Part shown: one piece after another, positions 18 to 19,336 of the stretch
Layout of the letters: every line of letters starts with the position of its first letter
Numbering within the stretch: position 1 is the stretch's first letter
Source: a virus
Taxonomy: Duplodnaviria > Heunggongvirae > Uroviricota > Caudoviricetes
IMG/VR virus record: IMGVR_UViG_651053023_000001
Location: 1 to 64,000 of that record
Strand: one strand, 5' to 3'
DNA: 64,000 nucleotides
Program-made: the position numbers and the translations under genes
The notes under the pieces: generated by a model
Told to the model about the DNA's origin: nothing
What the model saw: only the letters and a program-made list of their open reading frames with translations
The model's database searches: none

Positions 18-435
18 CTTAAGGGTTATTGAACATGATTAATTTACCTGTAAATCCATACAGTTCAATGCCTTATCAGGTCAAATAGTGATCACTTGAT
101 CATTTGATCAAGGTTGCGCTACGTAAAATCTGCGAAATGTTGGCAGTGTTAGTGCTCCAGATTTCGCGTAGCGCACTTAGCACCACCAATCAATCAGAGG
201 TGAAAACTGGGATATTCAGCTGCTAAAGTGTCCACTCATCTTGAGCTTGAGAAAAACCGTGGTTACTGGCGGGCAAAATGGTTTGATCGTGATAGTTGCC
301 AACTGTCATTATCGCGCGGTGAAGAGAAAATAGAACGCACGCGCGGTCGCTGGCGTTTCTATGACGAGAACCATAAACAGGTAAAGGCAGAGCCAATCCT
401 GTACACTTTACTTAAAACCATTATCTGAGTGTTAA

Positions 436-1467
436 ATGTCCAATTTACTGACCGTACACCAAAATTTGCCTGCATTACCGGTCGATGCAACGAGTGATGA
501 GGTTCGCAAGAACCTGATGGACATGTTCAGGGATCGCCAGGCGTTTTCTGAGCATACCTGGAAAATGCTTCTGTCCGTTTGCCGGTCGTGGGCGGCATGG
601 TGCAAGTTGAATAACCGGAAATGGTTTCCCGCAGAACCTGAAGATGTTCGCGATTATCTTCTATATCTTCAGGCGCGCGGTCTGGCAGTAAAAACTATCC
701 AGCAACATTTGGGCCAGCTAAACATGCTTCATCGTCGGTCCGGGCTGCCACGACCAAGTGACAGCAATGCTGTTTCACTGGTCATGCGGCGGATCCGAAA
801 AGAAAACGTTGATGCCGGTGAACGTGCAAAACAGGCACTGGCGTTCGAACGCACTGATTTCGACCAGGTTCGTTCACTCATGGAAAATAGCGATCGCTGC
901 CAGGATATACGTAATCTGGCATTTCTGGGGATTGCTTATAACACCCTGTTACGTATAGCCGAAATTTCCAGGATCAGGGTTAAAGATATCTCACGTACTG
1001 ACGGTGGGAGAATGTTAATCCATATTGGCAGAACGAAAACGCTGGTTAGCACCGCTGGTGTAGAGAAGGCACTTAGCCTGGGGGTAACTAAACTGGTTGA
1101 GCGATGGATTTCTGTCTCTGGTGTAGCTGATGATCCGAATAACTACCTGTTTTGCCGCGTCAGAAAAAATGGTGTTGCCGCGCCATCATCCACCAGCCAG
1201 CTATCAACTCGCGCCCTGGAAGGGATTTTTGAAGCAACTCACCGATTGATTTACGGGGCAAAAGATGACTCTGGTCAGCGATACCTGGCCTGGTCTGGAC
1301 ATAGTGCCCGTGTCGGTGCCGCGCGAGATATGGCCCGCGCCGGAGTTTCAATACCGGAGATCATGCAAGCTGGTGGCTGGACCAACGTAAACATTGTCAT
1401 GAACTACATTCGTAACCTGGATAGTGAAACGGGGGCAATGGTGCGCCTGCTGGAAGATGGCGATTAG
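436..1467 (+). CDS. cre: Cre tyrosine site-specific recombinase
   Basis: 343-aa ORF MSNLLTVHQNLPALPVDATSDEVRKNLMDMFRDRQAFSEHTWKML... ending ...MVRLLEDGD, recognised as P1 Cre; adjacent to loxP. Confidence 0.97.
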   Translation: MSNLLTVHQNLPALPVDATSDEVRKNLMDMFRDRQAFSEHTWKMLLSVCRSWAAWCKLNNRKWFPAEPEDVRDYLLYLQARGLAVKTIQQHLGQLNMLHRRSGLPRPSDSNAVSLVMRRIRKENVDAGERAKQALAFERTDFDQVRSLMENSDRCQDIRNLAFLGIAYNTLLRIAEISRIRVKDISRTDGGRMLIHIGRTKTLVSTAGVEKALSLGVTKLVERWISVSGVADDPNNYLFCRVRKNGVAAPSSTSQLSTRALEGIFEATHRLIYGAKDDSGQRYLAWSGHSARVGAARDMARAGVSIPEIMQAGGWTNVNIVMNYIRNLDSETGAMVRLLEDGD

Positions 1468-1517
1468 CCATTAACGCGCAAAGGATTGCTCTGATTCTTT
1501 GATATTTATGGTGACAT

Positions 1518-1829
1518 ATGAGAAAGGATTTCAACATCGACGGAAAATATGTAGTGCTGTCTGTAAGCACTAATATTCAGTCGCCAGCCGTCATTGTCAC
1601 TGTAAAGTTGAGCGACAGGATGCCTGATATTGACTCAATATCCGTTGCGTTCCCTGTCAAAAGTATGCGTAGTGCTGAACATTTCGTGATGAATGCCACC
1701 GAGGAAGAAGCACGGCGCGGTTTTGCTAAAGTGATGTCTGAGTTTGGCGAACTCTTGGGTAAGGTTAACAATGTCCTTTCAATCAGTTCAGCAAGGTCCA
1801 AAGCGTTAACAGCTTCCATGATGAAGTAA
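1518..1829 (+). CDS. hypothetical protein in the position of P1 cra
   Basis: 103-aa ORF directly after cre on the same strand; no recognisable motif; an antisense ORF of equal length overlaps it. Confidence 0.35.
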   Translation: MRKDFNIDGKYVVLSVSTNIQSPAVIVTVKLSDRMPDIDSISVAFPVKSMRSAEHFVMNATEEEARRGFAKVMSEFGELLGKVNNVLSISSARSKALTASMMK

Positions 1830-1961
1830 AAAAAAGCCTGGCAAGGAGCCAGGCTGCACAAAAGAGCGGGTTTGTATTCCGCATCCAATCAATCAAGAAG
1901 GAGTATAGCACACTGGTACTGAAGTGAAAAAATATGATTCGCGATAAACAAAATATCTACC

Positions 1962-1985
1962 ATTGCTCTAATTTATTGCTATAAT
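1962..1985 (+). promoter_or_regulatory. C1 operator-like site (ATTGCTCTAATTTATTG) abutting a TATAAT -10 hexamer
   Basis: Matches P1 C1 operator consensus ATTGCTCTAATAAATTT with 2 mismatches; TATAAT at 1980..1985. Confidence 0.5.
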
Positions 1986-2044
1986 TGAGCCGCGGTTTTT
2001 GTCAACTACGAAGACGAGCCATTACTTAACTCCTTGACATCATT

Positions 2045-2068
2045 GGCGGCCGAAAGGCCGCCTTTTTT
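2045..2068 (+). terminator. rho-independent terminator (GGCGGCCGAAAGGCCGCC + T6)
   Basis: Perfect GC-rich hairpin followed by TTTTTT, immediately 3' of the ant-like copy A stop on the other strand. Confidence 0.6.
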
Positions 2069-2070
2069 AA

Positions 2071-3183
2071 TCATTCAGCCGCCACCGGTTTTAACAAGCC
2101 AGCATCGAGCAGTTTACGCGTCAACCACTGCTGGCCTTTACCCGTTAATTGAGGCGTCAGCCGTATCTGATAGCCATCTTCATCATCCAGCACCACTTCT
2201 TTCACTGTGAAATATCCGGCGTTTATGTACTGCTGAAACGGTACATTTTTACGTCCGCCGGACGCAATCAGGATGCCGTTCTCCCGTAACCAGGCAAACA
2301 GCGCATTTTGCTTAAGTCCAACAACCTTTGCAAAATTCCCAATCAGGATCCCCTTAGCCACTGATACCCGGTCGGCAAAATCGACCTTAGGGGCTGCGGC
2401 CACCAGCTGCTGATTTAGCTGGTGGGCTTTCTGTTCCAGAAGTTGCTTTTGTTCAGCCAGCTCGGCAGCCAGGCGCAGAGCTTCGGGAAGCGTCTGAGGG
2501 ATTGCGACCGGTTGCTGTTCTTTTTGCCGGAAGTAGCTGTCTTCCAGTTTTTCAAAGAATGCCCATGCCTGATCGGTTTCGATCATTTTAGCGTGGCGGG
2601 CTGCGCCGCGTTCCGTCCAGAGAGTGAGGTTTCTGGCGTTCTTACCAACAGAGTTACTAAAAGTAACTCTGTTCTTAAATTCTCTTAATTTTGAACCAGT
2701 TAAAAGAAAGTAGTGTTTACCTTCTTCAAAGCGATCGGAGTTGCAAGACAAATTTTTACGAATATTGCCTTCATCGGTTCCGTACCCCTTAGCAAGAGTT
2801 TCGGTTGTTACGACACGTACTCCCTGCCATTCCAGAACGGGAATTTCATCCGGCTGATTTTGAACAACCACCAGCTCCGATTCCTGAACTGAAGGTGCAT
2901 GAATTTTTTCTGATTTAACGTTAGTTGCTTTCATTCTGTGTGCCTCCTTGCGTGCTTCGGCTGCGACGGTTGCGTAATTCAGATGACCCTGTTCGAGCAG
3001 GTATTCGCGGATATCAGACAACAGGATACGGTGAACCGCGTGTTTGTCCTTTCTCCGGTAAAGTTGTTTGGTGATCATGAAGTAGTTGGCAATAACGCCT
3101 GGTATATCCCTGGTGCTGATACAGGCAGTGTGCTGTTCAATTGCCTCGATCATCTCTTCACGGGTGACTAATGACGTTCTCAT
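2071..3183 (-). CDS. antirepressor-like protein, copy A (ORF6N/Bro-N-like N-terminal region plus KilA-C/ANT C-terminal domain)
   Basis: 370 aa; C-terminal ~150 aa (PQTLPEALRLAAELAEQK...KVDFADRVSVA...GKGQQWLTRKLLDAG) shared with the canonical Ant (47170..48213) and with KilA; preceded by an icd-like ORF overlapping by ATGA. Confidence 0.8.
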   Translation of the reverse strand: MRTSLVTREEMIEAIEQHTACISTRDIPGVIANYFMITKQLYRRKDKHAVHRILLSDIREYLLEQGHLNYATVAAEARKEAHRMKATNVKSEKIHAPSVQESELVVVQNQPDEIPVLEWQGVRVVTTETLAKGYGTDEGNIRKNLSCNSDRFEEGKHYFLLTGSKLREFKNRVTFSNSVGKNARNLTLWTERGAARHAKMIETDQAWAFFEKLEDSYFRQKEQQPVAIPQTLPEALRLAAELAEQKQLLEQKAHQLNQQLVAAAPKVDFADRVSVAKGILIGNFAKVVGLKQNALFAWLRENGILIASGGRKNVPFQQYINAGYFTVKEVVLDDEDGYQIRLTPQLTGKGQQWLTRKLLDAGLLKPVAAE

Positions 3184-3401
3184 AGCCCCTCCTGAGCAGA
3201 AGCGTTAACAGGGAGGCACCAGTAACTGAGAGAATTGCGCAAATCGGTAGAAAAGCGGGCAGAGAAAATACAGGGAGCATCCGGAAGCTGAGAACGTGCC
3301 TCATCTTCTGTTGGTGCGATAACGAAGTGATAGTGACGTTTCTGGCAGGAGTAAAAGCGCCAGATAAATTCAGGGCGTGCGCAAGGATTGGCATTAACCA
3401 T
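3180..3401 (-). CDS. Icd-like small protein, copy A
   Basis: 73-aa ORF MVNANPCARPEFIWRFYSC... overlapping the ant start; same arrangement as icd-ant in the canonical immI copy. Confidence 0.7.
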   Translation of the reverse strand: MVNANPCARPEFIWRFYSCQKRHYHFVIAPTEDEARSQLPDAPCIFSARFSTDLRNSLSYWCLPVNASAQEGL

Positions 3402-3444
3402 AGTTACGGCCTCATGTACAGGTTTAACAACCTGCTACCCGCTG

Positions 3445-3525
3445 CTAAACGGGTGGCAGGACGTGACGGGGTTAGCAGACTGGCGTACATGAAACCAGCA
3501 GGCCGAAGCCTCCCCATCACGCCCC
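3445..3525 (-). ncRNA. c4-like antisense RNA, copy A (approximate bounds)
   Basis: Conserved leader block upstream of icd carrying a 6-nt element (ATGTAC in RNA sense) complementary to GTACAT overlapping the icd ribosome-binding site and to a second GTACAT further upstream. Confidence 0.4.
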
Positions 3526-3702
3526 ACCATAATTCGGGCGTAACGCGGTTTTACGGACATAAAAATACCGCAATATCGGAAATCTGCGGTTGTCCGCATG
3601 TACATTCAGGCTGCTAAACCCGGTCGCAGAATTTGCTACGACGTAGGAACTATAAGCCTGAACAACAGGAAGATCAATAGTCTGGCGTCCAATAGTAGTT
3701 TA

Positions 3703-3735
3703 TTTGCTCTAATAAATCAAATTTATTAGAGCAAT
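3703..3735. promoter_or_regulatory. overlapping head-to-head pair of C1 operator sites
   Basis: TTTGCTCTAATAAATCA on top strand and ATTGCTCTAATAAATTT on bottom strand, forming a palindrome. Confidence 0.65.
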
Positions 3736-3994
3736 AACAATCTAGTTGAATGTTTCCTCTCTGAGGTTGCAATGTGCACACTTAGTGCCTTATTTGTATG
3801 CACTAATAAATATATTATTTTTAACAATAAATAATTGACAACTGACAAGTGACTTCAGTCAGAATCATCACACGCCCGGTACGGATGGATCCCTTTTCAA
3901 ATATTCCATGGACGGCACAGTCTGAGTACCGGGCGCTACCTTAAGTTGTATTGCTAAGCCGCCGCTGGTGGCTTTTCTTTTTTGTAGGGGCGCT

Positions 3995-4636
3995 ATGGAT
4001 AAGAAAATATGCGTTGTTTCGATGAGCGTCGGCAAACCGGCGTCAATGACTGCTGCATGGATCAACAACGAGCTGATAATGGCTGAGCGGACCAGCTACC
4101 CTGAACGCCGCCGCGATATGGAACTCCAGCTGCTGCGCGAATTGCGAGAAAAAGAGGAAAAGGGTTTTATCGTGCTGGTGGAAGAGGAAAACAGCTTTAT
4201 TACTGGTCGAGTTGGCCAGCGTGTAAGGTTGCGCGATCCCTTCATGAACGGCAGGCCGGTACTAATTGAGGCCATGCAGATTTATAAGGAGCTGGAACGC
4301 CAGAAAGCAATCAAGTTACCGCGCAAGGAATCCGGCAAATACATCCTCCACCAAAGCATCTTCGATTCCGAACACGACAAAAAAGGCGATGAATTTTTCA
4401 ACATCAACTGGAGCGAAATAACGACAGAGCATGTTCTGACGTTACTATGTTGCTTTGCGACGGAATACAACAACGTTGCCAGCGCAGACTACATCAGGGC
4501 AATGGCTGGAGAAGTTGAGGCACGCCAGGAACCATCGTTACTAAGCCCTCTGATTAACATAATTCGCGGCACACAGAGACTTGCGGAAAAAAGCGTTCCA
4601 CACGGAATCTTAACTGGGAAGGGAAACTATTTTTAA
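3995..4636 (+). CDS. hypothetical protein (core of the inverted-repeat structure)
   Basis: ORF from ATG at 3995 (track ORF starts 3968) with AGGGG 5 nt upstream; no family recognised by eye. Confidence 0.5.
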   Translation: MDKKICVVSMSVGKPASMTAAWINNELIMAERTSYPERRRDMELQLLRELREKEEKGFIVLVEEENSFITGRVGQRVRLRDPFMNGRPVLIEAMQIYKELERQKAIKLPRKESGKYILHQSIFDSEHDKKGDEFFNINWSEITTEHVLTLLCCFATEYNNVASADYIRAMAGEVEARQEPSLLSPLINIIRGTQRLAEKSVPHGILTGKGNYF

Positions 4637-4669
4637 CATCCCCAAATCCTTTTGGGGAACAACTCATTC

Positions 4670-4987
4670 TTACAATAGCTGCCCCATACATTGTCTCCAG
4701 GCACTCCCCTCATTACCGTTATCAAGAAACGTAGAGGTTGCATAAGGAATGCCTCTGATTTGTGTTGATGTGAATGGACCATCAGACGTCGAAGTTGTGC
4801 GCAGTTTTGATGTAAACTCGTAATTTCCACTGATGCCTTTCTCTGCCAGAGCTTTTGATTTTGTGATAACTAAATCTGCACATTTCTCTGCGGCTACATA
4901 TTGCGGGTCTTTTTCAGCTTTTCCGGCACATGCAGTTATCGTTAAAACGATAGCTGCGGCTAACAAATTACCTAGTTTCATCTGCAT
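4670..4987 (-). CDS. small lipoprotein (signal peptide with lipobox LTITAC)
   Basis: 105 aa; N-terminal MQMKLGNLLAAAIVLTITAC is a typical lipoprotein signal peptide with cysteine; two further Cys in the mature part. Confidence 0.55.
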   Translation of the reverse strand: MQMKLGNLLAAAIVLTITACAGKAEKDPQYVAAEKCADLVITKSKALAEKGISGNYEFTSKLRTTSTSDGPFTSTQIRGIPYATSTFLDNGNEGSAWRQCMGQLL

Positions 4988-5086
4988 ACCTTATTAAGTG
5001 CATTAAAAACAGTAGGTTGCCAAGGTTTTAAACAAATTTCAATTCTCCATGACGCTCAACATGAGCAAAAATAACACACAACCCTC

Positions 5087-5120
5087 ATTGCTCTAATAAA
5101 TTTGATTTATTAGAGCAAAT
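5087..5120. promoter_or_regulatory. overlapping head-to-head pair of C1 operator sites
   Basis: ATTGCTCTAATAAATTT (perfect consensus) at 5087..5103 and its partner ATTTGCTCTAATAAATC on the bottom strand at 5104..5120. Confidence 0.65.
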
Positions 5121-5294
5121 ATCCTACCATTGCGCATAGCCCTATTGATCTCCTTACCGTTCAGGCTTATATTCATGCCGTCGTAGCAAATTCTGCGACC
5201 GGGTTTAGCAGCCTGAATACTTACGCGGACAACCGCAGATATCCGATATTGCGGTATTTTCATGTCCGTATAACCACGTTACGCCCGAATTATG

Positions 5295-5375
5295 GTGGGG
5301 CGTGATGGGGAGGCTTCGGCCTGCTGGTTTCGTAAGTGCCAGTCTGCTAACCCCGTCACGTCCTGCCACCTGTTT
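5295..5375 (+). ncRNA. c4-like antisense RNA, copy B (approximate bounds)
   Basis: Same conserved block as copy A but the 6-nt element is GTAAGT, complementary to ACTTAC at the icd ribosome-binding site (5404..5410) and at 5219..5225. Confidence 0.4.
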
Positions 5376-5420
5376 AGCAGCGGGTCGCAGGTTGTTTTAT
5401 CAACTTACGAGGCCGTAACT

Positions 5421-5642
5421 ATGGTTAATGCCAATCCTTGCGCACGCCCTGAATTTATCTGGCGCTTTTACTCCTGCCAAAAACGTCACTATCACTTCGT
5501 TATTGCACCAACAGAAGATGAGGCCCGCTCTCAGCTTCCTGACGCCCCATGTATTTTCTCTGCCCGCTTTTCTACCGATTCGCGCAATTCTCTCAGTTAC
5601 TGGTGCCTCCCTGTTAACGCTTCTGCTCAGGAGGGGCTATGA
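5421..5642 (+). CDS. Icd-like small protein, copy B
   Basis: 73 aa from ATG 5421 (track ORF 5292..5642 carries an unsupported N-terminal extension); one residue differs from copy A; overlaps the ant start. Confidence 0.7.
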   Translation: MVNANPCARPEFIWRFYSCQKRHYHFVIAPTEDEARSQLPDAPCIFSARFSTDSRNSLSYWCLPVNASAQEGL

Positions 5643-6757
5643 GAACGTCATTAGTCACCCGTGAAGAGATGATCGAGGCAATTGAACAGCACACTGCCTG
5701 TATCAGCACCAGGGATATACCAGGCGTTATTGCCAACTACTTCATGATCACCAAACAACTTTACCGGAGAAAGGACAAACACGCGGTTCACCGTATCCTG
5801 TTGTCTGATATCCGCGAATACCTGCTCGAACAGGGTCATCTGAATTACGCAACCGTCGCAGCCGAAGCACGCAAGGAGGCACACAGAATGAAAGCAACTA
5901 ACGTTAAATCAGAAAAAATTCATGCACCTTCAGTTCAGGAATCGGAGCTGGTGGTTGTTCAAAATCAGCCGGATGAAATTCCCGTTCTGGAATGGCAGGG
6001 AGTGCGTGTAGTGACAACCGAGACTCTTGCTAGAGGGTATGGGACAGAAACAATCCGTATTCGCCAAAATCATCATGAGAACAAAGTACGCTTTGTTGAA
6101 GGGAAGCACTTTTTCAAAGTTGAAGGAGAATCATTGCGCGAGTTGAAGCACAGAGTAGCTTTAAACTACTCTGTAAAAATTGCTCGCAATGTTCGCTCAC
6201 TCACCCTCTGGACAGAACGCGGCGCAGCCCGCCACGCTAAAATGCTCGAAACCGATCAGGCATGGGCATTCTTTGAAAAACTGGAAGACAGCTACTTCCG
6301 GCAAAAAGAACAGCAACCGGTTGCAATCCCCCAGACGCTTCCAGAAGCTCTGCGCCTGGCTGCCGAACTGGCTGAACAAAAGCAGCTTCTGGAACAGAAA
6401 GCCCACCAGCTAAATCAGCAGCTGGTGGCCGCCTCTCCTAAAGTCGATTTTGCCGACCGGGTATCAGTAGCTAAAGGGATCCTGATTGGGAATTTTGCAA
6501 AGGTTGTTGGTCTTAAGCAAAACGCGCTGTTTGCCTGGTTACGGGAGAACGGCATCCTGATAGCGTCCGGTGGACGTAAAAATGTGCCGTTCCAGCAGTA
6601 CATCAATGCGGGATATTTCACGGTGAAAGAAGTGGTGCTGGATGATGAAGATGGCTACCAGATACGGTTGACGCCTCAATTAACGGGTAAAGGCCAGCAG
6701 TGGTTGACGCGTAAACTGCTCGATGCTGGCTTGTTAAAACCGGTGGCGGCTGAATAA
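5639..6757 (+). CDS. antirepressor-like protein, copy B
   Basis: 372 aa; identical to copy A over the first ~131 aa and the C-terminal ANT/KilA-C domain, with a divergent patch between. Confidence 0.8.
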   Translation: MRTSLVTREEMIEAIEQHTACISTRDIPGVIANYFMITKQLYRRKDKHAVHRILLSDIREYLLEQGHLNYATVAAEARKEAHRMKATNVKSEKIHAPSVQESELVVVQNQPDEIPVLEWQGVRVVTTETLARGYGTETIRIRQNHHENKVRFVEGKHFFKVEGESLRELKHRVALNYSVKIARNVRSLTLWTERGAARHAKMLETDQAWAFFEKLEDSYFRQKEQQPVAIPQTLPEALRLAAELAEQKQLLEQKAHQLNQQLVAASPKVDFADRVSVAKGILIGNFAKVVGLKQNALFAWLRENGILIASGGRKNVPFQQYINAGYFTVKEVVLDDEDGYQIRLTPQLTGKGQQWLTRKLLDAGLLKPVAAE

Positions 6758-6764
6758 TGGAAGA

Positions 6765-6790
6765 ATGCCCGGTTGATGCCGGGCATGATT
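6765..6790 (+). terminator. hairpin (ATGCCCGG-ttgat-GCCGGGCAT) after ant copy B; weak terminator
   Basis: Perfect 8-bp stem but poor U-tract. Confidence 0.35.
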
Positions 6791-6904
6791 AAATGTCTCT
6801 TCAGCACATTACCGAAGTTCAATCTTCAACCAAGAAGTGGACTCGCATACGATTATCGCAATAAAATACTTGAAGTTTTATAAACTGTGAGTATCATTAC
6901 CCAT

Positions 6905-7360
6905 ATGAAAACATCCTATTTAACTATATTGGCTTTCCATATTCGCGATTTTCGCGAGAAGCATGGTGTTACTCAATCAGACATTGCATCTGGCCTTGGG
7001 ATAACAAGTGCCGGCTGGGGAAAAATTGAAAATGGTAAGTCCTCTCTCTCTGTAGAGAATATGATGAAATTCTGTAAAATCATTAATATTGATGCAACCA
7101 TACTTCTTGATATTTCCACAAAATCGGCAAAAAACTTAATCAAATGTGGATGGAGTGTATCTTATTCTCCTGTTGAGGATGATAATTTAATAGACGGAAA
7201 AAATATATTTGCTAAAACACATGGAATGAATAACGTTATGAGGAAATTTATAGACGGGAAACTTGGAAGTGTTTTAGACAAAGAATTTGATGATATTATT
7301 ATGAAATATGCAACATTTTATATGGTTGTAGCTAAAAATCTAAGAGATGACTTGATTTAA
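6905..7360 (+). CDS. XRE-family helix-turn-helix protein with C-terminal domain of unknown function
   Basis: HTH signature GVTQSDIASGLGITSAGWGKIENGKSSLSVENMMKF; AT-rich codon usage; start taken at ATG 6905 (track ORF begins at GTG 6887). Confidence 0.6.
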   Translation: MKTSYLTILAFHIRDFREKHGVTQSDIASGLGITSAGWGKIENGKSSLSVENMMKFCKIINIDATILLDISTKSAKNLIKCGWSVSYSPVEDDNLIDGKNIFAKTHGMNNVMRKFIDGKLGSVLDKEFDDIIMKYATFYMVVAKNLRDDLI

Positions 7361-7375
7361 AAATGGAGTGTACAT

Positions 7376-8128
7376 ATGGCATACAGAAAAGACAGCGATC
7401 TTGAATTCCTAGCTAAATGTAGCGACCGTGATCTTGATGATTTAGTTAACCTATTGATTTATGATAACGATGGCAAAAAAAGATGGACTGAAGAGTTATC
7501 TAACAATCGACAATATAAGGAATTTGCACCAAGACATAGCGTATATTGGAGAGAAATTGCTGCTGAAATTCAATGTTATGGTGGAAATACCATAGCAACT
7601 CTCTTGCGTGGTGGTAAAGGGGTCTGCTACAGAGAAATTCTCATTGATGTATGCAATAAGCTAAAGGTTAATTTCAATGCCAAGAGCCGAATAGAGGTTA
7701 TTGAACAAAATCTTCTATTAAAAATTCTCAGCGACTCTCTAGATAACATGTCATCCGAAGATATAAAAGTTTTTGCCATGGAACTTGGATTGGATGAAGT
7801 TACAAGATTTACTCCTGAGGCAGTTCTATCTGCCTTCCAATATATTTTCAGGGCCGGCGGTTTCAGATCTTATCAGGTAACTCTTAAATTTGCGAATCTT
7901 TTACTAAAAATTTTAATTGGACGCGGTTTAACACTCGCAGGTAATCAAATACTCGTAAAAGCATTATCTATTTTAACAGGCCCAATTGGTTGGGCTATAA
8001 CAGCCGCATGGACCATTGTAGATGTGGGAGGAACTGCTTATCGAGTAACAATTCCTGCTGTTATTCAAGTTGCTGTACTAAGGGCGAAAGTCAATAATAA
8101 TATTAAAGACAGCGATATTACCTTGTGA
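7376..8128 (+). CDS. hypothetical 250-aa protein with C-terminal hydrophobic segment; candidate effector of a two-gene accessory cassette
   Basis: ATG with GGAG 7 nt upstream, 15 bp after the HTH gene; hydrophobic stretch LTGPIGWAITAAWTIVDVGG near the C-terminus; AT-rich. Confidence 0.65.
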   Translation: MAYRKDSDLEFLAKCSDRDLDDLVNLLIYDNDGKKRWTEELSNNRQYKEFAPRHSVYWREIAAEIQCYGGNTIATLLRGGKGVCYREILIDVCNKLKVNFNAKSRIEVIEQNLLLKILSDSLDNMSSEDIKVFAMELGLDEVTRFTPEAVLSAFQYIFRAGGFRSYQVTLKFANLLLKILIGRGLTLAGNQILVKALSILTGPIGWAITAAWTIVDVGGTAYRVTIPAVIQVAVLRAKVNNNIKDSDITL

Positions 8129-8149
8129 TATTATAACTCCATCCATCAA

Positions 8150-8180
8150 GGAAGAGGTGCTAATCCTCTTCCTGTAATTC
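8150..8180. terminator. bidirectional terminator hairpin (GGAAGAGG-tgctaat-CCTCTTCC) between convergent genes
   Basis: Perfect 8-bp stem between the + strand cassette and the - strand lxc-like gene. Confidence 0.5.
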
Positions 8181-8203
8181 TATGATTCCTAAATGTTAAT
8201 GAG

Positions 8204-8452
8204 TCAATCAGCATTCAGAAGCAATGCGTTATCTATGATGATCTGCTCCCATTCTTCGAATGCCCGGTCGCGGACGCCCTGGGGAACGCTGTTAGTTTTG
8301 AAATCGACGACCGTACGCCATTTTCCGTCCGGACGGTACATGCGCAGAGCTTTACTTCCCCCTTCCCTGCGCACCTCAACGTTATGCTTGTCAGCAAACT
8401 CTTGTAATGCTCGTAGCGTCCCATGCTTTACTGTGTAGTATCGCTTTTTCAA
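8204..8452 (-). CDS. lxc: Lxc/Bof-like C1 co-repressor modulator (by size and synteny)
   Basis: 82-aa ORF at the end of the darB-ulx transcription unit; size and position match P1 lxc as I recall it. Confidence 0.5.
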   Translation of the reverse strand: MKKRYYTVKHGTLRALQEFADKHNVEVRREGGSKALRMYRPDGKWRTVVDFKTNSVPQGVRDRAFEEWEQIIIDNALLLNAD

Positions 8453-8889
8453 GTTTTCTCTCCAGCCTGTGCCAAGGCTTCAACTTCCAAATCGTAAGAC
8501 TCAAACTCATAGTCCTGGTCGTCAACCTCTTCAGGCACTGGCAGTAAATGCCAGGCTGAGTATATCTGACCATTATCAAAACGCTCCTGGCTGTAGAGCG
8601 TCGCAGCTATGAGCGTCAGCGCCGGGCGGTCATAACGGTAAATTTTGCGAACGTCACGGTCAACGAGACGACCGAAATTACCATAACCGCGCTCCAGTAA
8701 TAATTTTTTAATTTCCGGCCAGTATGGACCATAGCTGCGGTACAGGCGGGGATTTTTCAGTAATCGCCCGCGTAGCCCTGACAGGAAGAAATCAACGTAT
8801 TCGTCTTCTGTCTTTCCTAACAACGCCGTACGCAGTACCGCCTCAAGATATGTTTTATTCGGTTTTATTGTATCAGATAGTGTGGCCAT
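8449..8889 (-). CDS. ulx: Ulx-like protein (upstream of lxc)
   Basis: 146-aa ORF between darB and lxc, overlapping lxc start by 4 nt. Confidence 0.5.
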   Translation of the reverse strand: MATLSDTIKPNKTYLEAVLRTALLGKTEDEYVDFFLSGLRGRLLKNPRLYRSYGPYWPEIKKLLLERGYGNFGRLVDRDVRKIYRYDRPALTLIAATLYSQERFDNGQIYSAWHLLPVPEEVDDQDYEFESYDLEVEALAQAGEKT

Positions 8890-8922
8890 ATTATGCGACG
8901 CCCGGCGAACCGGGCGCTCCTG

Positions 8923-11900
8923 TTATGCGTATTGTTGGATGACGGCCAGAACGTCCGCCACGTTGTGTTTTGTCTCGATAATCCACCAGTTACCCGGGAA
9001 ATCGCTGTTCTTCGCCTTCGCTGGCAGCCAGCGAGCGCCGAATTTCGCCTTGATTGCGTCTTTCGCACGGAAAAGAACGCCTTTCATGCCTGAGGCTTCC
9101 TGAAGCCCAAATACCTCGCCAGCGGCGAATTTTGGTGCGTACATCATCTTCAGGTCGGCGGTGGATACGCGATAATTCAGACCAAGAGACTGAGCTATGC
9201 TGGTGGCATCACCCTGTATTGATGATAACTCTTCTTGTTTCTCGTTTCTGGCGGCAATCTCTTCCTCCGTGATGTTGCCAAGGGCCAGGTTTATCCGATC
9301 AGCGTCGGCCTGTTTCTCTTCATCGGTGCGCCCGGCAAGAACCGTGTTAATTCTCTGCAATATCTCCACATGATTCTTGCGCATGCTGAGCAATTCCGGC
9401 GTAACCTCGTTAAGATCCACCAGCCCAAGGATGGCAAGGTCGGAAAACATTGATACCAGGTTGTAGGTCATGCGATAGCTGAGTTGACCATAGGCTGATG
9501 GCAACTTCACCGCATCCATTTGATAGGCATCCATAAATTTAGAGCCGTCGTTTACGACATCCGCTATTGCAGGTGTGATTTTCCCTGTGGTGGCGGCCTC
9601 CCTGATTGCTGTTACCCACGATTGAGTCAGCGCGGCGACTGCATGATTCAGATTGGCTTCCCGTTCTGCTGCGATGCGCGCGCTTGCTGCGTCCATTGCC
9701 TGCTTGATCTCGGCTTTATTGCTGTAAATGCCAATGGTGCCAAACTGTGCTGTGGTGATCTCATAATCTGACGCCCGGAACTCATGGGTACCGAAAATAG
9801 CATTGGTGACCTCAAGTTCAGAGTCCCCGTTACGAGTAGCCCCCTGGCTTGTTTTCTCCGGCATTTTGGCGATCGAATCCGCTATTTTCTCCTGAAGTGC
9901 TTCAGGGGATAGCGTATCTCCGTATGACGCGATTACATCGCCATAATTGGAGCCAAACAGTTCAGTCAGGAATACTTCTGCCAAACGGACCTGGCGGTTA
10001 TTCCCTTCCGACATCATACCAAGCACCCATTTTGCAATTGACGACTTCAGCGCGCCGTCACGGCGATCCGGGTAAACCGCATGCTTCAGTGGGTCCGTAT
10101 AGGTACCAACAAAATCAATGCTATAGCCTGACTCTGTAGTCTGAACGCCGTATGAGTCAGTGATTTTGATCATGCCGCGCTGCTGGAAACGGTAGAAATC
10201 GTCACAGGAAATGATGTCGTTAATCCCGGCGATGGAGACGCCACCACTGATTTTCTGCATAACAGCATCTTCATCGGGAGTTACATCCACCTGTTTATCC
10301 AGCGTCTTCACATCCCAGTTACCCGATTTGGTGCCTTTGAAGGTAAAGATGATCTCCACGTCTGCGCGCTGGCTGTCGAAGTCCAGCGACTTAATGCGAA
10401 CGATATCACCGGCACAATCGTAGTATTGGCCTACACGCCATGAGCGATCGCCGATAACAAGGAACTCATTCGCATGGTTAACCATGTCAGGATCAATATC
10501 CAGAATGCCTTTATTTATTGCATCCTCCACCAGCGGGCGCAGGCGTTTGATATCCGTCGCGGCCTTCTGAGTACGGTTCAATAATTTCTCATAGCGTGAG
10601 ATGGCCTGAGAGATATTAGCCTTGCGCTGAATGGCGCTTTTCAACGACGCGCGATACTGTGCTAACAACATACGGTCTGTGTGATGGACACTCCCCCAGC
10701 GGGCCTTCCAGTCTGCGTTATCCGCTGCCTTGGCCATTGCCGCCTGTTTGAATTTAGCTACCTCGGCGGTGGTCTTTTCAAGTTCCGCTTTGCTTCGCTC
10801 TAATTCAGCGGTAAGTACCTCCACATCCTCGCCAGCTGCGTGCTGCGCCTTGATGTAGTTCTGAAGGTCGATAGTAGCCTGTTCTTTCTGGCGAGCGCGT
10901 TTCGCAGCTTTCGCCTTATCCATTTGAACCTGCATCATTGCCAGACGTTCGCCGTCATCCTTCGCGGTATACATCTGCATTTCGATCATGTCATTGGCGT
11001 CGGCGTTCTCCATTTCTGACTTATCTGAACGGAGGATATCGGAGATCCAGCCTGCTTTACGCTTCAGCGTCTTCAGTCGGTATTCATCGAAAGACCCCTT
11101 GCCGCAGTAGTAGTGAACGCGAACGCTTGCACGGTTGGAGCCAACTCGTGCACCGCGACCGTTACGTTGTGCGATACTGGCTGGTGTCCACGGCAACGTC
11201 AGGTGGTGGATATCCGTCGTTCCTCGATGCAGGTTGATACCCACCTCTGCCTTTTTGTTGCAGATGATGATCGGAGTCCGGCCCTCCTGGAAGTCGGCTG
11301 CAATCTTTTCCAGACCGCCCAACGACATTTCATTTTGCTGCGCGATATAGGCGTCATACAGAGCCATTTGCTCGTTGTATTTCGCTATCTGTGCATCTGT
11401 TGGTTCATCCGGTAGCTCTTTCGGCGGTTTAACCGCTTTCAGTTTCTTACCGGTTTTACCTGCCTCGGCAACCGTCTGAGCATTCAGGATCCCCACCTTT
11501 GAAGGTTCAAGGTTTAGAGCATTGCAGATAATGCGCTTGAGCTTCTGGTGCTGCGTTTTTTCATCGGTGAAGATGATTTGCTTACCTTCCGGGAAAAACT
11601 CCTTCAGCGTGGCGATCAGCTTCGCGTATTTGGGCGTAACGGGGTGAGTTACGGTCTGTTCGTCAATGCCAAACCTGGCCAGTCGCTTATTCACTTCCTG
11701 CTCGAACGCTTCCGGAACCTGCAACTGAATAAACTCGCCCTTATCTATCAGGGAGTATTGCGATTGCTGCGTGATTGAATCATCACTGTCGTCGTATTCG
11801 CTGGTGGCTTGTTTAGGCAAACTGTCCGCCAGCTGCTGCACCGCATCGGCGTACTCCGGCAGGAAACGATAGGTGATCCGGCGATAGTACAGGTCCATGT

Positions 11901-14900
11901 CAGTACATACGCGGTCCATATCCCTGATTATTGAGAAGATCGGACGGGCTTTCTCGTGCTCAATCACGCCGTCTTCATTGACCGAGGTCGTTACGCCATT
12001 GTTGGCTTTGGCCGCCGCTTCCGCCTGCTGACGCAATTCTTCATACGCCGCCAGTTGTTCTTCAGTAAGTGGTGCATCCTGCTGGTGTTCGTCCAGCTCC
12101 GGGATCTCCACGGTATCCTTAACGTCTTCCGCCGTTTTAAGCGTTACCCAGCGATGGAATATACCGCGCAGCGCATCAAGGTTTTCAAAGCCCACCAGCG
12201 CCATTTTTTCTTCAACTTCACCGCTGATTTTCTGTACCGTTTCCAGCCTGGTCTTGCCGAAGAATTTAACGAAGTCATCAGGACCGTAGATCCCCATGTT
12301 CTGCCAGTATTCCTTCGGCAGAACATGAGAAAGCATGTTGTATGCATCGATCGGGGTGTTAACGACTGGCGTTGCAGTCAGGAGAACCGGCCCGCGCCCG
12401 CCATTCTTTTTCATCAGGTACGCGTTTTTAATTGCCATATCTCGCGCCGATTGCGCCACCGCGCTGGTGGGCAGATAGGCCAGTTGTGACGCTTCGCGAC
12501 CATTTTTATAGCTATTGCGGTAGTTGTGACCTTCGTCAGCGATCACACTATCGAAGCCCATATCCTCAAAGTACGGATACTTCTCTGCTTTTTCGGTGCC
12601 GGTATCTGAATACTCCGACAATACCCGGCGACGCGCGGCCTCTTTGCGGTGGGAGTCGGAGTCCATTGCGCTGGCTACGCGTCCGGCGGCAACGAAGTCA
12701 TAAAGCATATCCTGTGCATGCTCATCTACGGTGTCATCACGTAGCGGAATGCGGGCGTATTGTTCTTTGGTAAACACGACTGCACGGTAATTTGAGTGCG
12801 GGATCGCGTTCATCCGCGCCGTGATAGTGGCTTCATCTGCCAGCTTAAGAGCATCGCGCATAACTGGAGTGCCATCAGTACCAAGAACAGGTTTACCGTT
12901 CTCATCGAGCACCGGCACCTGGCGAATCTGATCGCCATCCATCAGCACATCAAGACCGACGAACAGGTAGTTACTGAATGCCTCTTCACTCAGAAACTCT
13001 TTTGCTTCGTAATACCAGTTTTCCAGCACTGATTTAGGCACTACATACGCAGTACGGGTGGAACGACCGTTCTCATAGTTGAACGCCTCAAGCGCCAGCG
13101 CGGTCGTGGTTTTACCCAGCCCGGTGCCGAAGCCCAGGATGCCGCGCCCATCTTCGGACAGTCGGCGCACCTCGCTATTCTGGTAATCAAATGGCTGGCG
13201 CTTACCGCTTAATCCCTTCAACCCAAGCGGATCGCCAGAGTGTTCATACGGGATATTGCTATTGAACACATCGTTGTATTTGGCAACCAGCTCATCGTAG
13301 CGATCGTGCGTCTTGATCCACTTATTGAACTGGTCCTCAAGCAGTGCCATCTGCTCGCGGTAGCCGTTAGCCGTCGCGCTATCTTTGCCACCGATACGCG
13401 CACCATTGAGATACTTTTCCAGCTGTGCCGGGAACCCGGTCGCGTTTTCACCTGATTTACGGTCCCACTCGTAGCGGATCTCGCCTGTTTCTTTATCCTT
13501 GCGCTGGACGACACCGTATCGGTGCCCGACGAACAGACCATCACCACCGTGATAGGTGTCAGAAACCATTTCGTCGCCTTCAAGCTGCACTGACTGCACA
13601 TAGCGCAGATCCGGATAGCCGTTTTCCTGCAAAAATTCCAGAATGACGGAACGGTCGAACCAACGGCTATTGAGCTTAAACCGGATATTCTCTGCTGGCG
13701 TCTTGATGCGCTTCTCTTCGATCGCTGCCAGCTGATTAAGGACGTTGTTCTTTACTGGACCGTCGGGGAGCGTGGCGAGGAATTCCTGTTTTGGAGCCAC
13801 TATCTCGTTAATGTCGCCGCTGGTGGCGCGGGCGAACGGAACAATCCCGCCATACGGTGAAACCGCAATACCAGGGGTGCTGGCCAATAAATTAAGCAAC
13901 TCTTCATCACTGGCTGGCAGTTCGCCGGTAAACGCAAGGCGGAAATCATCGAGCTGGATTGGATCGCGAGTGAGATCACTGTAGAGATAACGCAGGGTGT
14001 CCTGATAGCTGGTGGAGTCATAACTTGCGCTGGAATCATGCGTAACCAGCTTTCCTGTCAGCTCGTCAGAAATAGTGCCATCCAGCTTAATTGCACCACG
14101 GAAAGCAAACCAGGCGCGCGCACCGCTCCCCGATAATTTCGCTATCGGGCCGCGACCGGGGTTACCAAAACGGTCAATCTCTGCCTGCAAACGGGATACC
14201 AGAGAAAGGCGCTGCTGTTCGATTTGTTCAGCACTATGCCCGGCGGCCTTCATGTCCTGATATTCAATTAACATCCGGCCAATCATCGCCCCGCGATACA
14301 AGCGTTCACGGTATTTTTCAGGCTGGCTGTTAATCCAGTCCACCAGCTGCACCATATCGTCGCTGATTGATGTGGTGTACTTATCGCGGACATTTGCCAT
14401 CTGGGTAAATGTCATGCCGAGACGGCCTTCTGTTGTAGTCAGGTTACGCTGAAGAGCCTCCCAGCTATCCGCGCCATAACTGGCAGCATCGATCTTAAGT
14501 TCCTTCCCGGCATCAGCTTCAATCCAGCGACCACCAGCATATTTTTGCCATACGCCATTAATCAGGCGCATTTCCCCTTCATCAACAACATCTGCGGTCG
14601 GTGACGGTTCAGCCATATCGAGCAAAGACCAGTCGATACGACTTTCGAAACGATGAATCAGCTTCGCTTTAAGAGCCTGGTTATCAATCTGCCCGTCGGC
14701 ACGAACCTCAATACGCCCCTGGAAGCCCTTTTCCTGGGTACCATGAACAAACCGGCGACCGTCCTTTTCAAACCACTTGCCAGAAATAAACGTTGGCCAA
14801 AGCACATTTGCCGATTCAAGAGTGCTTTCATCCACCAGGGGGATTTTCTCAGCCATCTCCGCCGGATGTTTGCGCATCAGCACCACATCAACGACTGTAC

Positions 14901-15690
14901 TGGTCCCGTTTGCGTCAAAAGTACCGGTAGGCAAGCGGTGAGCGCCAAGAAATTCAGCTTTACGGGATAGGCGCAGGCGTAACCGCTTCATGTTTGAACC
15001 TGAAACAATGGACGGCGGCACAATCACGCACATGAATCCGCCTGGCTTTATCTTGTCCAGCATGCGGAGCATGAAGTAAGAACCCATGTCCGTTTCTTCT
15101 GCGTAAGGCTTATCGATGTTGCGTGTGTTATCACGACCACCGAACGGAACGTTACCCACAACATGGTCGAATGAATCGTTAGGCGTGCTTACAGCCAATT
15201 GTTCGAACGGGGAAATCTGTACGCTGTCTTCCGGGTGTAACAGCTGGTTTATACGACCGGAAACACTGCTGATCTCAGTCGCGGTCATCACCGTACCAAC
15301 CGGTTTTGTCTCATTAAAAACGCCGGTTCCCGCCGATGGTTCCAGAGTGTTACCTACGTCCGCGCCGTAGAGCTTCATGATCTCCCAGACGCCTTCAGCG
15401 ATCGGCTTTGGTGTGTAATATTCGGAGACGGACCCGCCAATGCCGCCTTCACCAGTGTACCCGGCCAGGATCTGGCGCTGTTCATCTGTCAGTGTCGCGC
15501 CGTCCACCAGCGAATTAAGCAAATCTATCGCCTTCTGATTCGCCTCCCGGCGCAGTCGGTCATAGCTTTTGCCTTCCACCTTTTCCACGCCGTATTTAAT
15601 CGGCGCTCGGTGAGATGTTATTGCCCTAATGTATTTCAATATTTCGCTGACACTTGAACAGCGAAACACCCCCATAGATAGCTTGTTCAT
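8923..15690 (-). CDS. darB: DarB antirestriction protein (N6-adenine methyltransferase-like plus helicase domains)
   Basis: 2255 aa (P1 DarB length); methyltransferase-like VGNVPFGG motif near the N-terminus; helicase Walker A GFGTGLGKTTTALAL and DEGH box. Confidence 0.9.
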   Translation of the reverse strand: MNKLSMGVFRCSSVSEILKYIRAITSHRAPIKYGVEKVEGKSYDRLRREANQKAIDLLNSLVDGATLTDEQRQILAGYTGEGGIGGSVSEYYTPKPIAEGVWEIMKLYGADVGNTLEPSAGTGVFNETKPVGTVMTATEISSVSGRINQLLHPEDSVQISPFEQLAVSTPNDSFDHVVGNVPFGGRDNTRNIDKPYAEETDMGSYFMLRMLDKIKPGGFMCVIVPPSIVSGSNMKRLRLRLSRKAEFLGAHRLPTGTFDANGTSTVVDVVLMRKHPAEMAEKIPLVDESTLESANVLWPTFISGKWFEKDGRRFVHGTQEKGFQGRIEVRADGQIDNQALKAKLIHRFESRIDWSLLDMAEPSPTADVVDEGEMRLINGVWQKYAGGRWIEADAGKELKIDAASYGADSWEALQRNLTTTEGRLGMTFTQMANVRDKYTTSISDDMVQLVDWINSQPEKYRERLYRGAMIGRMLIEYQDMKAAGHSAEQIEQQRLSLVSRLQAEIDRFGNPGRGPIAKLSGSGARAWFAFRGAIKLDGTISDELTGKLVTHDSSASYDSTSYQDTLRYLYSDLTRDPIQLDDFRLAFTGELPASDEELLNLLASTPGIAVSPYGGIVPFARATSGDINEIVAPKQEFLATLPDGPVKNNVLNQLAAIEEKRIKTPAENIRFKLNSRWFDRSVILEFLQENGYPDLRYVQSVQLEGDEMVSDTYHGGDGLFVGHRYGVVQRKDKETGEIRYEWDRKSGENATGFPAQLEKYLNGARIGGKDSATANGYREQMALLEDQFNKWIKTHDRYDELVAKYNDVFNSNIPYEHSGDPLGLKGLSGKRQPFDYQNSEVRRLSEDGRGILGFGTGLGKTTTALALEAFNYENGRSTRTAYVVPKSVLENWYYEAKEFLSEEAFSNYLFVGLDVLMDGDQIRQVPVLDENGKPVLGTDGTPVMRDALKLADEATITARMNAIPHSNYRAVVFTKEQYARIPLRDDTVDEHAQDMLYDFVAAGRVASAMDSDSHRKEAARRRVLSEYSDTGTEKAEKYPYFEDMGFDSVIADEGHNYRNSYKNGREASQLAYLPTSAVAQSARDMAIKNAYLMKKNGGRGPVLLTATPVVNTPIDAYNMLSHVLPKEYWQNMGIYGPDDFVKFFGKTRLETVQKISGEVEEKMALVGFENLDALRGIFHRWVTLKTAEDVKDTVEIPELDEHQQDAPLTEEQLAAYEELRQQAEAAAKANNGVTTSVNEDGVIEHEKARPIFSIIRDMDRVCTDMDLYYRRITYRFLPEYADAVQQLADSLPKQATSEYDDSDDSITQQSQYSLIDKGEFIQLQVPEAFEQEVNKRLARFGIDEQTVTHPVTPKYAKLIATLKEFFPEGKQIIFTDEKTQHQKLKRIICNALNLEPSKVGILNAQTVAEAGKTGKKLKAVKPPKELPDEPTDAQIAKYNEQMALYDAYIAQQNEMSLGGLEKIAADFQEGRTPIIICNKKAEVGINLHRGTTDIHHLTLPWTPASIAQRNGRGARVGSNRASVRVHYYCGKGSFDEYRLKTLKRKAGWISDILRSDKSEMENADANDMIEMQMYTAKDDGERLAMMQVQMDKAKAAKRARQKEQATIDLQNYIKAQHAAGEDVEVLTAELERSKAELEKTTAEVAKFKQAAMAKAADNADWKARWGSVHHTDRMLLAQYRASLKSAIQRKANISQAISRYEKLLNRTQKAATDIKRLRPLVEDAINKGILDIDPDMVNHANEFLVIGDRSWRVGQYYDCAGDIVRIKSLDFDSQRADVEIIFTFKGTKSGNWDVKTLDKQVDVTPDEDAVMQKISGGVSIAGINDIISCDDFYRFQQRGMIKITDSYGVQTTESGYSIDFVGTYTDPLKHAVYPDRRDGALKSSIAKWVLGMMSEGNNRQVRLAEVFLTELFGSNYGDVIASYGDTLSPEALQEKIADSIAKMPEKTSQGATRNGDSELEVTNAIFGTHEFRASDYEITTAQFGTIGIYSNKAEIKQAMDAASARIAAEREANLNHAVAALTQSWVTAIREAATTGKITPAIADVVNDGSKFMDAYQMDAVKLPSAYGQLSYRMTYNLVSMFSDLAILGLVDLNEVTPELLSMRKNHVEILQRINTVLAGRTDEEKQADADRINLALGNITEEEIAARNEKQEELSSIQGDATSIAQSLGLNYRVSTADLKMMYAPKFAAGEVFGLQEASGMKGVLFRAKDAIKAKFGARWLPAKAKNSDFPGNWWIIETKHNVADVLAVIQQYA

Positions 15691-15756
15691 TGGTAATCCT
15701 TAACAAGTGACTAGTGTTAAATTCCGTTAAAACACGATGCGAATTATTCTAATTAA

Positions 15757-18487
<2,731 letters not shown>

Positions 18488-18500
18488 CCACGAAAAATAA

Positions 18501-18524
18501 CCCCGGCGGATGCCGGGGTTCTCG
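18501..18524. terminator. terminator hairpin (CCCCGGC-ggat-GCCGGGG) after pro
   Basis: GC-rich perfect stem followed by TTCTCG. Confidence 0.5.
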
Positions 18525-18778
18525 TTAACTATTATCGCCTTCGCCTGCGTGCCATATATTTGCGCACCGCGCGGCGTGGACAATCTGAAGCGGTTTCTTT
18601 CTGCTGCATCAATCTTGCAGCCATGCTCAAAAATGTCAAGCACAGCCGAAGCCCAGCATACAATAGCGGTTCCAGTGGCCACGTCTCATTGAGCACATAT
18701 ACCGCCATGAAAATCGAGTCGAAAACTATCGCCGCCAGCGATAACTTCATTGTCGAAAGTCGGCGGAGCTGCCGGAGT

Positions 18779-19336
18779 TTATTCATTGATCAGCCCCGTC
18801 AGGCAAAGCTGGCGTTCTTTTTCACGGCGAATCTTTAAACCTCGCAGGGGCACGCCGTTACTGTTCACAAAATCAGGGAGATGGTTACACATATTCACCC
18901 ATTCCCCTTTCTGCGCCCACTTGTGGATGGACGTTTCGACTCGCATGCCTCGCGCTTTGCTGTAGTAGGTCCGTAAGCTATTGCATCCCATATTGAATGC
19001 CGCGCTTGTCATTGCACTGAAGGCATTATCGGGCATGTCTTTGCCCCGAAAGTGCTGATTAATACAGCGTTCAGCGATCAGGATATTCTTTTCCCAATCA
19101 GCGGCGATTTGCTGGTCGGTTTTTCGCACACCCGGCGTTACCCCGTGTGTATTACCGATCCCGTCAGTCCATACCCCCGCCGGGCACATGTATGGATCAC
19201 GTCGGCAACCTTCAGCGTTACCAATCAGCTCAAGCCCCGCCTGGTTGGTTCGCACATTGCCATTACCCATCACGATGGTAATCATCACCGCGATAGCGCA
19301 AATTGCACCGCCTCCTGCGGCTGTTTTTCCCTTCAT
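18779..19336 (-). CDS. lyz: Lyz SAR-endolysin (T4-lysozyme-type with N-terminal signal-arrest-release segment)
   Basis: 185-aa product from internal ATG: MKGKTAAGGGAICAIAVMITIVMGNGNVRTNQAGLELIGNAEGCRRDPYMCPAGVWTDGIGNTHGVT..., recognised as P1 Lyz; track ORF has a 33-aa upstream extension. Confidence 0.9.
   Translation of the reverse strand: MKGKTAAGGGAICAIAVMITIVMGNGNVRTNQAGLELIGNAEGCRRDPYMCPAGVWTDGIGNTHGVTPGVRKTDQQIAADWEKNILIAERCINQHFRGKDMPDNAFSAMTSAAFNMGCNSLRTYYSKARGMRVETSIHKWAQKGEWVNMCNHLPDFVNSNGVPLRGLKIRREKERQLCLTGLINE

Follow-up and report, generated by a model that had tools for sequence, protein, structure and literature searches.

Why does a phage-plasmid carry three copies of an immunity module, two of them arranged as mirror images? 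The window analysed here is the first 64,000 nucleotides (nt) of IMG/VR record IMGVR_UViG_651053023_000001. It is 100% identical to the Escherichia coli UMNF18 plasmid pUMNF18_103 (NZ_AGTD01000005.1), starting at coordinate 1 of that plasmid, and pUMNF18_103 is a P1-like phage-plasmid. Close to the window start, which corresponds to the lox/cre region of such elements, two modules resembling the P1 immunity region immI (C1 operator, c4 RNA, icd and the antirepressor gene ant) lie in inverted orientation around the backbone gene mat. A canonical immI at 46.6-48.2 kb is present besides these two, as the initial annotation had noted, and that third locus itself checks out. The question is whether these two arms are redundant copies of one module or modules with specificities of their own. 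Our analysis indicates that this single genome probably holds three self-repressing immunity specificities, two of them carried by cassettes that flank mat.

In P1, the C4 RNA is processed to 77 nt, and Ant1 and Ant2 bind and inactivate the C1 repressor. C4 is reportedly processed from the leader of the operon, and its pairing with the sites a2/b2 is said to block translation of icd and hence of ant. P1 and P7 are reportedly heteroimmune because their c4 and target sequences differ. An antirepressor function of Ant1/Ant2 and repression of Ant synthesis by c4 RNA are described for P1 (PMC8546580).

The three modules and the probable C4 specificity code

We characterized the modules by repeat searches, gapped alignment, open reading frames (ORFs) and the Rfam models for C4 (RF01695, gathering score 45) and c4-a1b1 (RF03163, gathering score 46.7). 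Each of the two inverted modules was verified to contain an operator, a C4 RNA, an icd of 73 amino acids (aa) and an ant, with both operons transcribed outward. The match to the C4 model is full length in both arms, and the c4-a1b1 model matches at 3603-3655 in the left arm (53.2 bits) and at 5167-5219 in the right arm (54.6 bits). The parts of the three modules, in the order of transcription, are as follows, with annotations from the Prokaryotic Genome Annotation Pipeline (PGAP) where given.

Left module
3703-3735, minus strand: bivalent (palindromic) C1 operator, composed of the 17-mer at 3719-3735 (minus) and a 14/17 copy at 3703-3719 (plus)
3649-3677, minus strand: sigma-70 promoter-like site TTGATC-17-TATAGT, at the position of P1 P1c4 (former P51b)
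3597-3655, minus strand: a1/b1, with a1 TTTAGCAG at 3611-3618 and b1 GTACATG at 3597-3603
3449-3534, minus strand: C4 RNA, 71.7 bits, with b' CAUGUAC at 3485-3491 and a' CUGCUAA at 3472-3478
3412-3449, minus strand: a2/b2, with a2 at 3442-3449 and b2 GTACATG at 3413-3419
3180-3401, minus strand: icd, 73 aa, Icd-like by PGAP; phrog_1426, 4.8e-46
2071-3183, minus strand: ant, 370 aa; phrog_63, 1.9e-135; internal ATG (M84) at 2932-2934

Right module
5087-5119, plus strand: bivalent C1 operator, composed of the 17-mer at 5087-5103 (plus) and a 14/17 copy at 5103-5119 (minus)
5145-5173, plus strand: promoter-like site TTGATC-17-TATATT, at the P51b position
5167-5225, plus strand: a1/b1, with a1 at 5204-5211 and b1 ACTTACG at 5219-5225
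5288-5373, plus strand: C4 RNA, 70.8 bits, with b' CGUAAGU at 5331-5337 and a' CUGCUAA at 5344-5350
5373-5410, plus strand: a2/b2, with a2 at 5373-5380 and b2 ACTTACG at 5403-5409, adjoining the icd Shine-Dalgarno sequence
5421-5642, plus strand: icd, 73 aa
5639-6757, plus strand: ant, 372 aa; internal ATG at 5888-5890

Canonical immI module
46621-48213, plus strand: the whole module, P7-type, followed by kilA and repL
46621-46637, plus strand: monovalent operator
46698-46750, plus strand: a1b1 (RF03163)
46819-46904, plus strand: C4 RNA, 69.6 bits, with b' CACAAUC
46952-47173, plus strand: icd
47170-48213, plus strand: ant1, 347 aa, without ORF6N

The window contains nine matches to the C1 operator, against 0.23 expected by chance. 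In both arms the perfect 17-mer ATTGCTCTAATAAATTT is oriented in the direction of transcription and overlaps by 1 nt an opposite-strand copy matching at 14 of 17 positions, which bears out the palindromic operator pair recognized earlier; the Oc4 operator annotated in P1 aligns with the operator position of both arms. Further downstream, b2 in each module is located directly 5' of the icd GAGG, which in the two arms lies 8 nt ahead of the icd ATG, and the icd stop and the ant start overlap as ATGA in both arms.

Both arms share with P1/P7 immI (Op51/Oc4, P51a/b, c4, icd, ant1/ant2) the order of parts and the two Rfam families, the a1/b1-a2/b2 logic, the placement of b2 at the icd ribosome-binding site, a 73-aa icd overlapping ant and a nested Ant2-like start, and their DNA is 82-84% identical to that of P1/P7 immI. 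They differ from it in location, since they occupy the c8-mat and mat-lxc intervals, whereas immI lies between the sim/lipoprotein genes and kilA-repL, a position that only the 46.6-48.2 kb copy of the window has. In addition, the arm operator is bivalent and palindromic while that of immI is monovalent, the b' sequences CAUGUAC and CGUAAGU are new, the Ants of 370-372 aa have an ORF6N centre in contrast to the 347-aa Ant1, and three modules are present per genome here. P1 itself carries c8-ref-Omat-mat-res-mod at this site and lacks both arms.

We then aligned the two arms with the immI regions of the window, P1 and P7; the P1 entry provides annotated a1, b1, a2 and b2 sites. Where the modules diverge from each other, they do so mainly in b1, b2 and the b' loop of C4:

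P1: a' CUGUCAA, b' CACUAAC, b1 = b2 GTTAGTG
P7 and window immI: a' CUGCUAA, b' CACAAUC, b1 = b2 GATTGTG
Left arm: a' CUGCUAA, b' CAUGUAC, b1 = b2 GTACATG
Right arm: a' CUGCUAA, b' CGUAAGU, b1 = b2 ACTTACG

The three C4s of the window have the same a' and three different b' heptamers, and to each b' its own b1 and b2 are exactly complementary; in both arms, a1/b1 and a2/b2 are exact complements of the a'/b' of their own C4. Approximately 17 of the 36 leader mismatches between the arms sit in b1, b' and b2, where the changes are coordinated and preserve complementarity. All three C4s are predicted to fold in the same way, b' lying in a hairpin loop and a' in an unpaired stretch. The predicted energy of the duplex between this loop and b2 is -16.9 to -17.8 kcal/mol for cognate pairs, against -6.7 to -11.2 kcal/mol for non-cognate pairs. 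These values refer to the loop-b2 duplex only, since whole-molecule duplex energies are blind to intramolecular structure and were not used.

The same complementarity extends to the relatives. A set of 204 related loci yielded 64 distinct leaders, which combine two a' and eight b' alleles in 13 combinations, and a1, b1, a2 and b2 are all perfectly complementary in 64 of 64. The alleles are not bound to a position; CGUAAGU, for example, is found at the immI, left and right sites. In the genomes compared, P1-type modules that share a genome also carry different codes: all three differ pairwise in each of the three lineages with both arms (described below), and nine genomes or contigs gave 20 co-resident pairs, all 20 of which are distinguished by a', b' or both. 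A C4 pattern scan of genome contigs gave three matches only, too few for a cross-species survey. As a separate observation, a 2.9-kb contig labelled as a Bacillota metagenome-assembled genome (L206, JAFAFU010000019.1) contains an exact P1-type C4, CGUAAGU/CUGCUAA, with matching targets, and is probably mis-binned enterobacterial phage-plasmid DNA.

Because each b' is exactly matched by its own b1 and b2, we infer that the main silencing target of each C4 is the module that encodes it. By analogy with P1/P7, a C1-controlled operator together with a constitutive promoter would drive a transcript containing a1/b1, C4, a2/b2, icd and ant. The processed C4 would pair through a' and b' with a2/b2 and cover the icd ribosome-binding site, and since ant expression would need icd translation, the antirepressor would be off in the lysogen. 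With each C4 acting mainly on its own module, three immunity specificities would result, and the three RNAs would be expected to be orthogonal in vivo. The ecological role suggested by such stacking is twofold. As a prophage, the element would silence incoming relatives with any of the three ant-module types; as an invader, it would escape every resident relative except one producing all three C4 types.

Several observations weigh against this reading. First, a' is common to all three C4s of the window, and partial cross-repression via a'/a2 is possible. Second, in TUM1886, another genome with both arms, the two arm modules have an identical b' and are told apart by a' alone. Third, the constant difference between co-resident modules is suggestive only, as 20 of 20 differing pairs has a naive chance of ~0.08 (taking ~12% as the chance that a random pair is identical) and the genomes are related. 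Fourth, one IMG/VR contig carries in tandem two identical C4s of the divergent pacB-c1 type described below. Finally, the extra Ants depart from Ant1 in their central third (the ORF6N domain; 60% identity overall), so their target could be other than C1.

The Ant proteins and their probable target

The Ants of the two arms share 92% identity, and each is 60% identical to the Ant1 of the window. Both match phrog_63 along their full length (1e-131 to 1e-135), and all three Ants share the N-terminal ~100 aa and a C-terminal KilAC domain. The left Ant consists of an Ant1-like N-terminus and two Pfam domains, ORF6N at residues 116-200 and KilAC/ANT at 258-359; the right Ant has the same architecture, but its ORF6N patch has diverged. 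ORF6N occupies the place where Ant1 has unrelated sequence, and it is also the strongest difference between the arms. The internal ATG at M84, with AAGGAGG ahead of it, is invariant in all three Ants, as for Ant2, which at the level of sequence points to conservation of the nested Ant1/Ant2-type start in the extra ants. A single residue distinguishes the Icd proteins of the two arms, which share ~82% identity with their immI counterpart.

The replacement of the central third by an ORF6N domain that is absent from Ant1 and differs between the arms raises the alternative that the modules are immI-like in their regulation, while their Ants hit the repressors of unrelated prophages or some other host or phage factor. 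Two further points are in line with it: the C-terminal KilAC domain also occurs in KilA, which is no antirepressor, and at the pacB-c1 site of other P1-like plasmids a C4 leader quite unlike that of the arms precedes an icd-ant body 98% identical to that of the right arm. We nevertheless regard this alternative as unlikely, given the full-length match to phrog_63, the conserved N-terminal 100 aa and Ant2 internal start, and the wiring of the modules to C1 operators. We infer that C1 is the target of the ORF6N-containing Ants as well.

Origin of the two arms around mat

How the two arms came to face each other was addressed by comparing them with one another and with their relatives. The inverted repeat search identified three paired segments, 2752-3680/5142-6070 (929 nt, 93%), 2039-2628/6200-6789 (590 nt, 93%) and 3690-3735/5087-5132 (46 nt). 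By gapped alignment, the homologous unit reaches from the operator to the ant stop codon, 2071-3735 (minus) on the left and 5087-6757 (plus) on the right. The homology initially delimited at 3660 and 5150 is indeed present there, but the unit runs somewhat further inward, to 3735 and 5087. Over 1703 alignment columns the arms are 89.5% identical, which does not fit their earlier description as near-identical. They are in fact mosaic, with local identity ranging from 54% to 100%: the leader part shows 78-96%, an exact run of 422 nt spans 2819-3240/5582-6003, a patch within ant at ~2629-2810/6012-6199 drops to 54-72%, and the 3' portion of ant shows 86-100%.

From IMG/VR we retrieved 78 loci that code for relatives of the right Ant, and we sorted them by gene order. 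Two single-arm layouts were each seen repeatedly. The left-only layout reads cre and c8, then ant, icd and c4 on the minus strand, then mat and lxc; the right-only layout reads ref, mat and orf105, then c4, icd and ant, then a helix-turn-helix (HTH) gene and a DUF3944 gene. The left arm of the window is 99.94% identical to the left-only contig L033 over all 1665 nt. The right arm is 98.3% identical to the right-only plasmids L003 and L014, and 99.3% identical to the right arm of two O111:H11 plasmids (L085 and L086). Of 5426 complete E. coli genomes, 54 contain the left junction, 15 the right junction, and five (UMNF18, 88.0502, 88-19539, TUM1886 and LH50-c) the double-arm layout. According to their arm alleles and C4 types, these five plasmids represent three distinct lineages.

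These data bear on the view, put forward in the initial annotation, of a mirror-image duplication. On such a view, one immI-like module would have been recently copied locally in inverted orientation, and the redundant copies would be drifting apart. The common gene order, the exact 422-nt tract and the Icd proteins one residue apart speak for such an event. Against it stand the overall divergence of the arms with its patch of 54-72%, the 98-99.9% identical counterpart that each arm has in single-arm genomes, the coordinated complementary changes in b1, b' and b2, and other double-arm plasmids in which the arms are merely 74% identical and the middle region of ant, including its domain, is different. 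The identities already indicate that the arms group by position and not by genome. We therefore consider a local duplication very unlikely. Since the arms are 89.5% identical mutually compared with 98-99.9% to their single-arm relatives, and since their C4 codes differ, the arms are, as judged from their sequences, two independently circulating cassettes combined around mat.

The surroundings of the arms relate to the P1 backbone as follows.

436-1467: cre
1518-1829: c8
3798-3815, plus strand: Omat, the C1 operator of mat, in P1-identical sequence, where P1 backbone homology restarts
3995-4636, with the ORF reaching back to 3968, plus strand: homologue of the P1 backbone gene mat, 213 aa by PGAP; phrog_1837
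4670-4981/4987, minus strand: orf105, an ORF of 103/105 aa with a lipoprotein-like signal; phrog_16031
8204-8452, minus strand: lxc
8923-15690, minus strand: darB

The gene order of P1 in this region is c8, Oref, ref, Omat, mat, res, mod. Because P1 homology breaks off past c8/Oref in the window and restarts precisely at the Omat sequence, the left module stands in the place of ref; the Oref operator is kept at 1962-1978 (14/17 match) despite the absence of ref. The right module, together with the 103/105-aa ORF, the HTH gene and the DUF3944 gene, is located where P1 has res/mod. Accordingly, the 1.5-kb core between the arms is made up of mat, a backbone gene that has an operator of its own, and a single cargo ORF belonging to the right cassette. 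This ORF, orf105, is missing in P1 and invariably accompanies the right cassette, with ~100 nt between it and the bivalent operator of the right module; its signal, MQMKLGNLLAAAIVLTITAC..., looks lipoprotein-like when read by eye. Pfam gave no domain in Icd, Mat or orf105, and PADLOC gave no match for Mat or orf105.

The arms have evidently exchanged sequence. Within the 422-nt tract, the right arm of the window has the left-arm allele at ~10 sites at which its closest relatives L086 and L003 differ, and outside the tract it is of the right-arm type. Such a pattern is what gene conversion leaves behind when the left arm is the donor and the right arm the recipient, and it indicates that the arms do recombine. 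The same features, inverted arms of ~1.65 kb with an exact 422-nt tract and a record of exchange, could make the mat/orf105 core invertible by RecA-dependent flipping with regulatory effects, as the initial annotation had partly anticipated. Recombination between the arms is supported by the conversion tract; an inverted core was not seen, since all five double-arm plasmids, a small sample, have one orientation, with mat co-oriented with c8, and the same co-orientation holds in every fetched locus with both genes. Furthermore, the core includes an operator and promoter region belonging to mat itself. An inversion would not rewire mat because this control region would move along with it, and it would merely swap the outer parts of the arms. 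Regulatory flipping is thus highly improbable.

An artefact of shotgun assembly has virtually no chance of explaining the locus: although the source record NZ_AGTD01000005.1 carries a whole genome shotgun label, more than 170 differences separate the arms, so these are not collapsed or mis-joined repeats, and the same double-arm layout in four other, independently closed plasmids rules out this possibility raised at the outset.

A few neighbouring features were recorded on the way. At 2045-2062, between Oref and the 3' end of the left ant, a GC-rich hairpin and its T-run resemble a terminator for c8; transcription from Oref, if any, would enter the left ant in antisense. The HTH_3 protein at 6887/6905-7360 (plus) is followed by the DUF3944 protein at 7376-8128 (plus), and the pair occupies the position of EcoP1I res/mod in P1. 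The DUF3944 protein matches PADLOC JukA (3.2e-66), and a JukB-like partner was not identified. Elsewhere in the window, an Rfam sok antitoxin RNA (109.7 bits) at 50362-50536 (plus), closely 3' of repL (49208-50053), would imply a hok/sok-type toxin-antitoxin locus near that position.

Stacked modules among P1-like phage-plasmids

In the E. coli collection, 550 records contain leaders of the P1-type c4, at a total of 665 sites, with a median of one and a maximum of five per genome. Many P1-like plasmids have a fourth kind of module in the pacB-c1 interval, which is served by a C1 operator of its own and encodes a strongly divergent C4; examples are at 2600-4310 of L086 (NZ_CP077568.1), in L006 and in ~45 other IMG/VR loci. 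The module is absent from pUMNF18_103. Its C4 loop is CCUUGGAC, and its a/b targets match if G-U pairs are allowed. A particularly rich stack was observed in IMGVR_UViG_2703718869_000013 (97 kb; L021, L079, L101, L139, L186), which contains five C4 modules, four of P1 type with four different a'/b' combinations and one of the pacB-c1 type.

C4 is assigned to Rfam clan CL00128 (C4/IsrK/P4 CI-type immunity RNAs). Members of this clan are small processed antisense RNAs that act on short complementary sites and control downstream lytic or antirepressor genes; the others have different downstream genes and belong to different phage families. P1/P7 heteroimmunity is the textbook case of phage immunity defined by an antisense RNA, usually told as two alleles at one locus, and P1-like phage-plasmids are common carriers of resistance genes in E. 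coli.

Extra icd-ant copies are already in the literature, and the modules described here are a variant of the known immI kind. Venturini et al. 2019 (PMC6906374) reported "homologs of P1 icd-ant1/2" in RD-1 of pSvP1 (MN510446), naming them solely as putative immunity genes, with c4 and specificity undiscussed. Plasmids pSvP1 and ETEC1731 have the same right cassette as the window (orf105, operator, c4, icd, ant, HTH and DUF3944; 98%) in place of res/mod, but they keep ref at the left and, unlike the window, show no inverted pair. The same paper places ant between pacB and c1 in pTZ20_1P and RCS47. Modules of this kind resemble the arms in having their own C1 operator, a C4-like RNA and matching a/b sites, and differ from them in their divergent leader and position. 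In the D6-like plasmid prophage pYU39_89, a second region is homologous to the antisense RNA and icd (PMC6799933); an antirepressor pair, an inverted layout and a specificity analysis are not described for this member of the D6 lineage, which we compared by description only. The inverted pair, the allelic b' code and the stacking have no description in the full-text literature searched, which leaves much subscription literature outside, and an earlier description is possible.

Taken with its relatives, the window reveals a pool of specificity alleles with perfect three-site covariation, and differently coded modules stacked in single genomes at fixed insertion points beside C1 operators. We tentatively propose that P1-family phage-plasmids may possess a multi-allelic, barcode-like antisense immunity, with at least two a' and eight b' C4 alleles plus the divergent pacB-c1 class, in which up to five differently coded c4-icd-ant cassettes of one genome work as a combinatorial lock. 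If so, a resident would have to make every C4 type of an invader to silence the invader's antirepressors, and competition between related phage-plasmids would involve an exchange of cassettes among them, with recombination homogenising or reshuffling the cassettes. Should the codes not be orthogonal, the region would instead be a recombination-prone set of redundant antirepressor cassettes. If they are orthogonal in vivo, they would constitute a natural set of small RNA repressor/target pairs and would account for mutual exclusion and invasion among closely related P1-like phage-plasmids.

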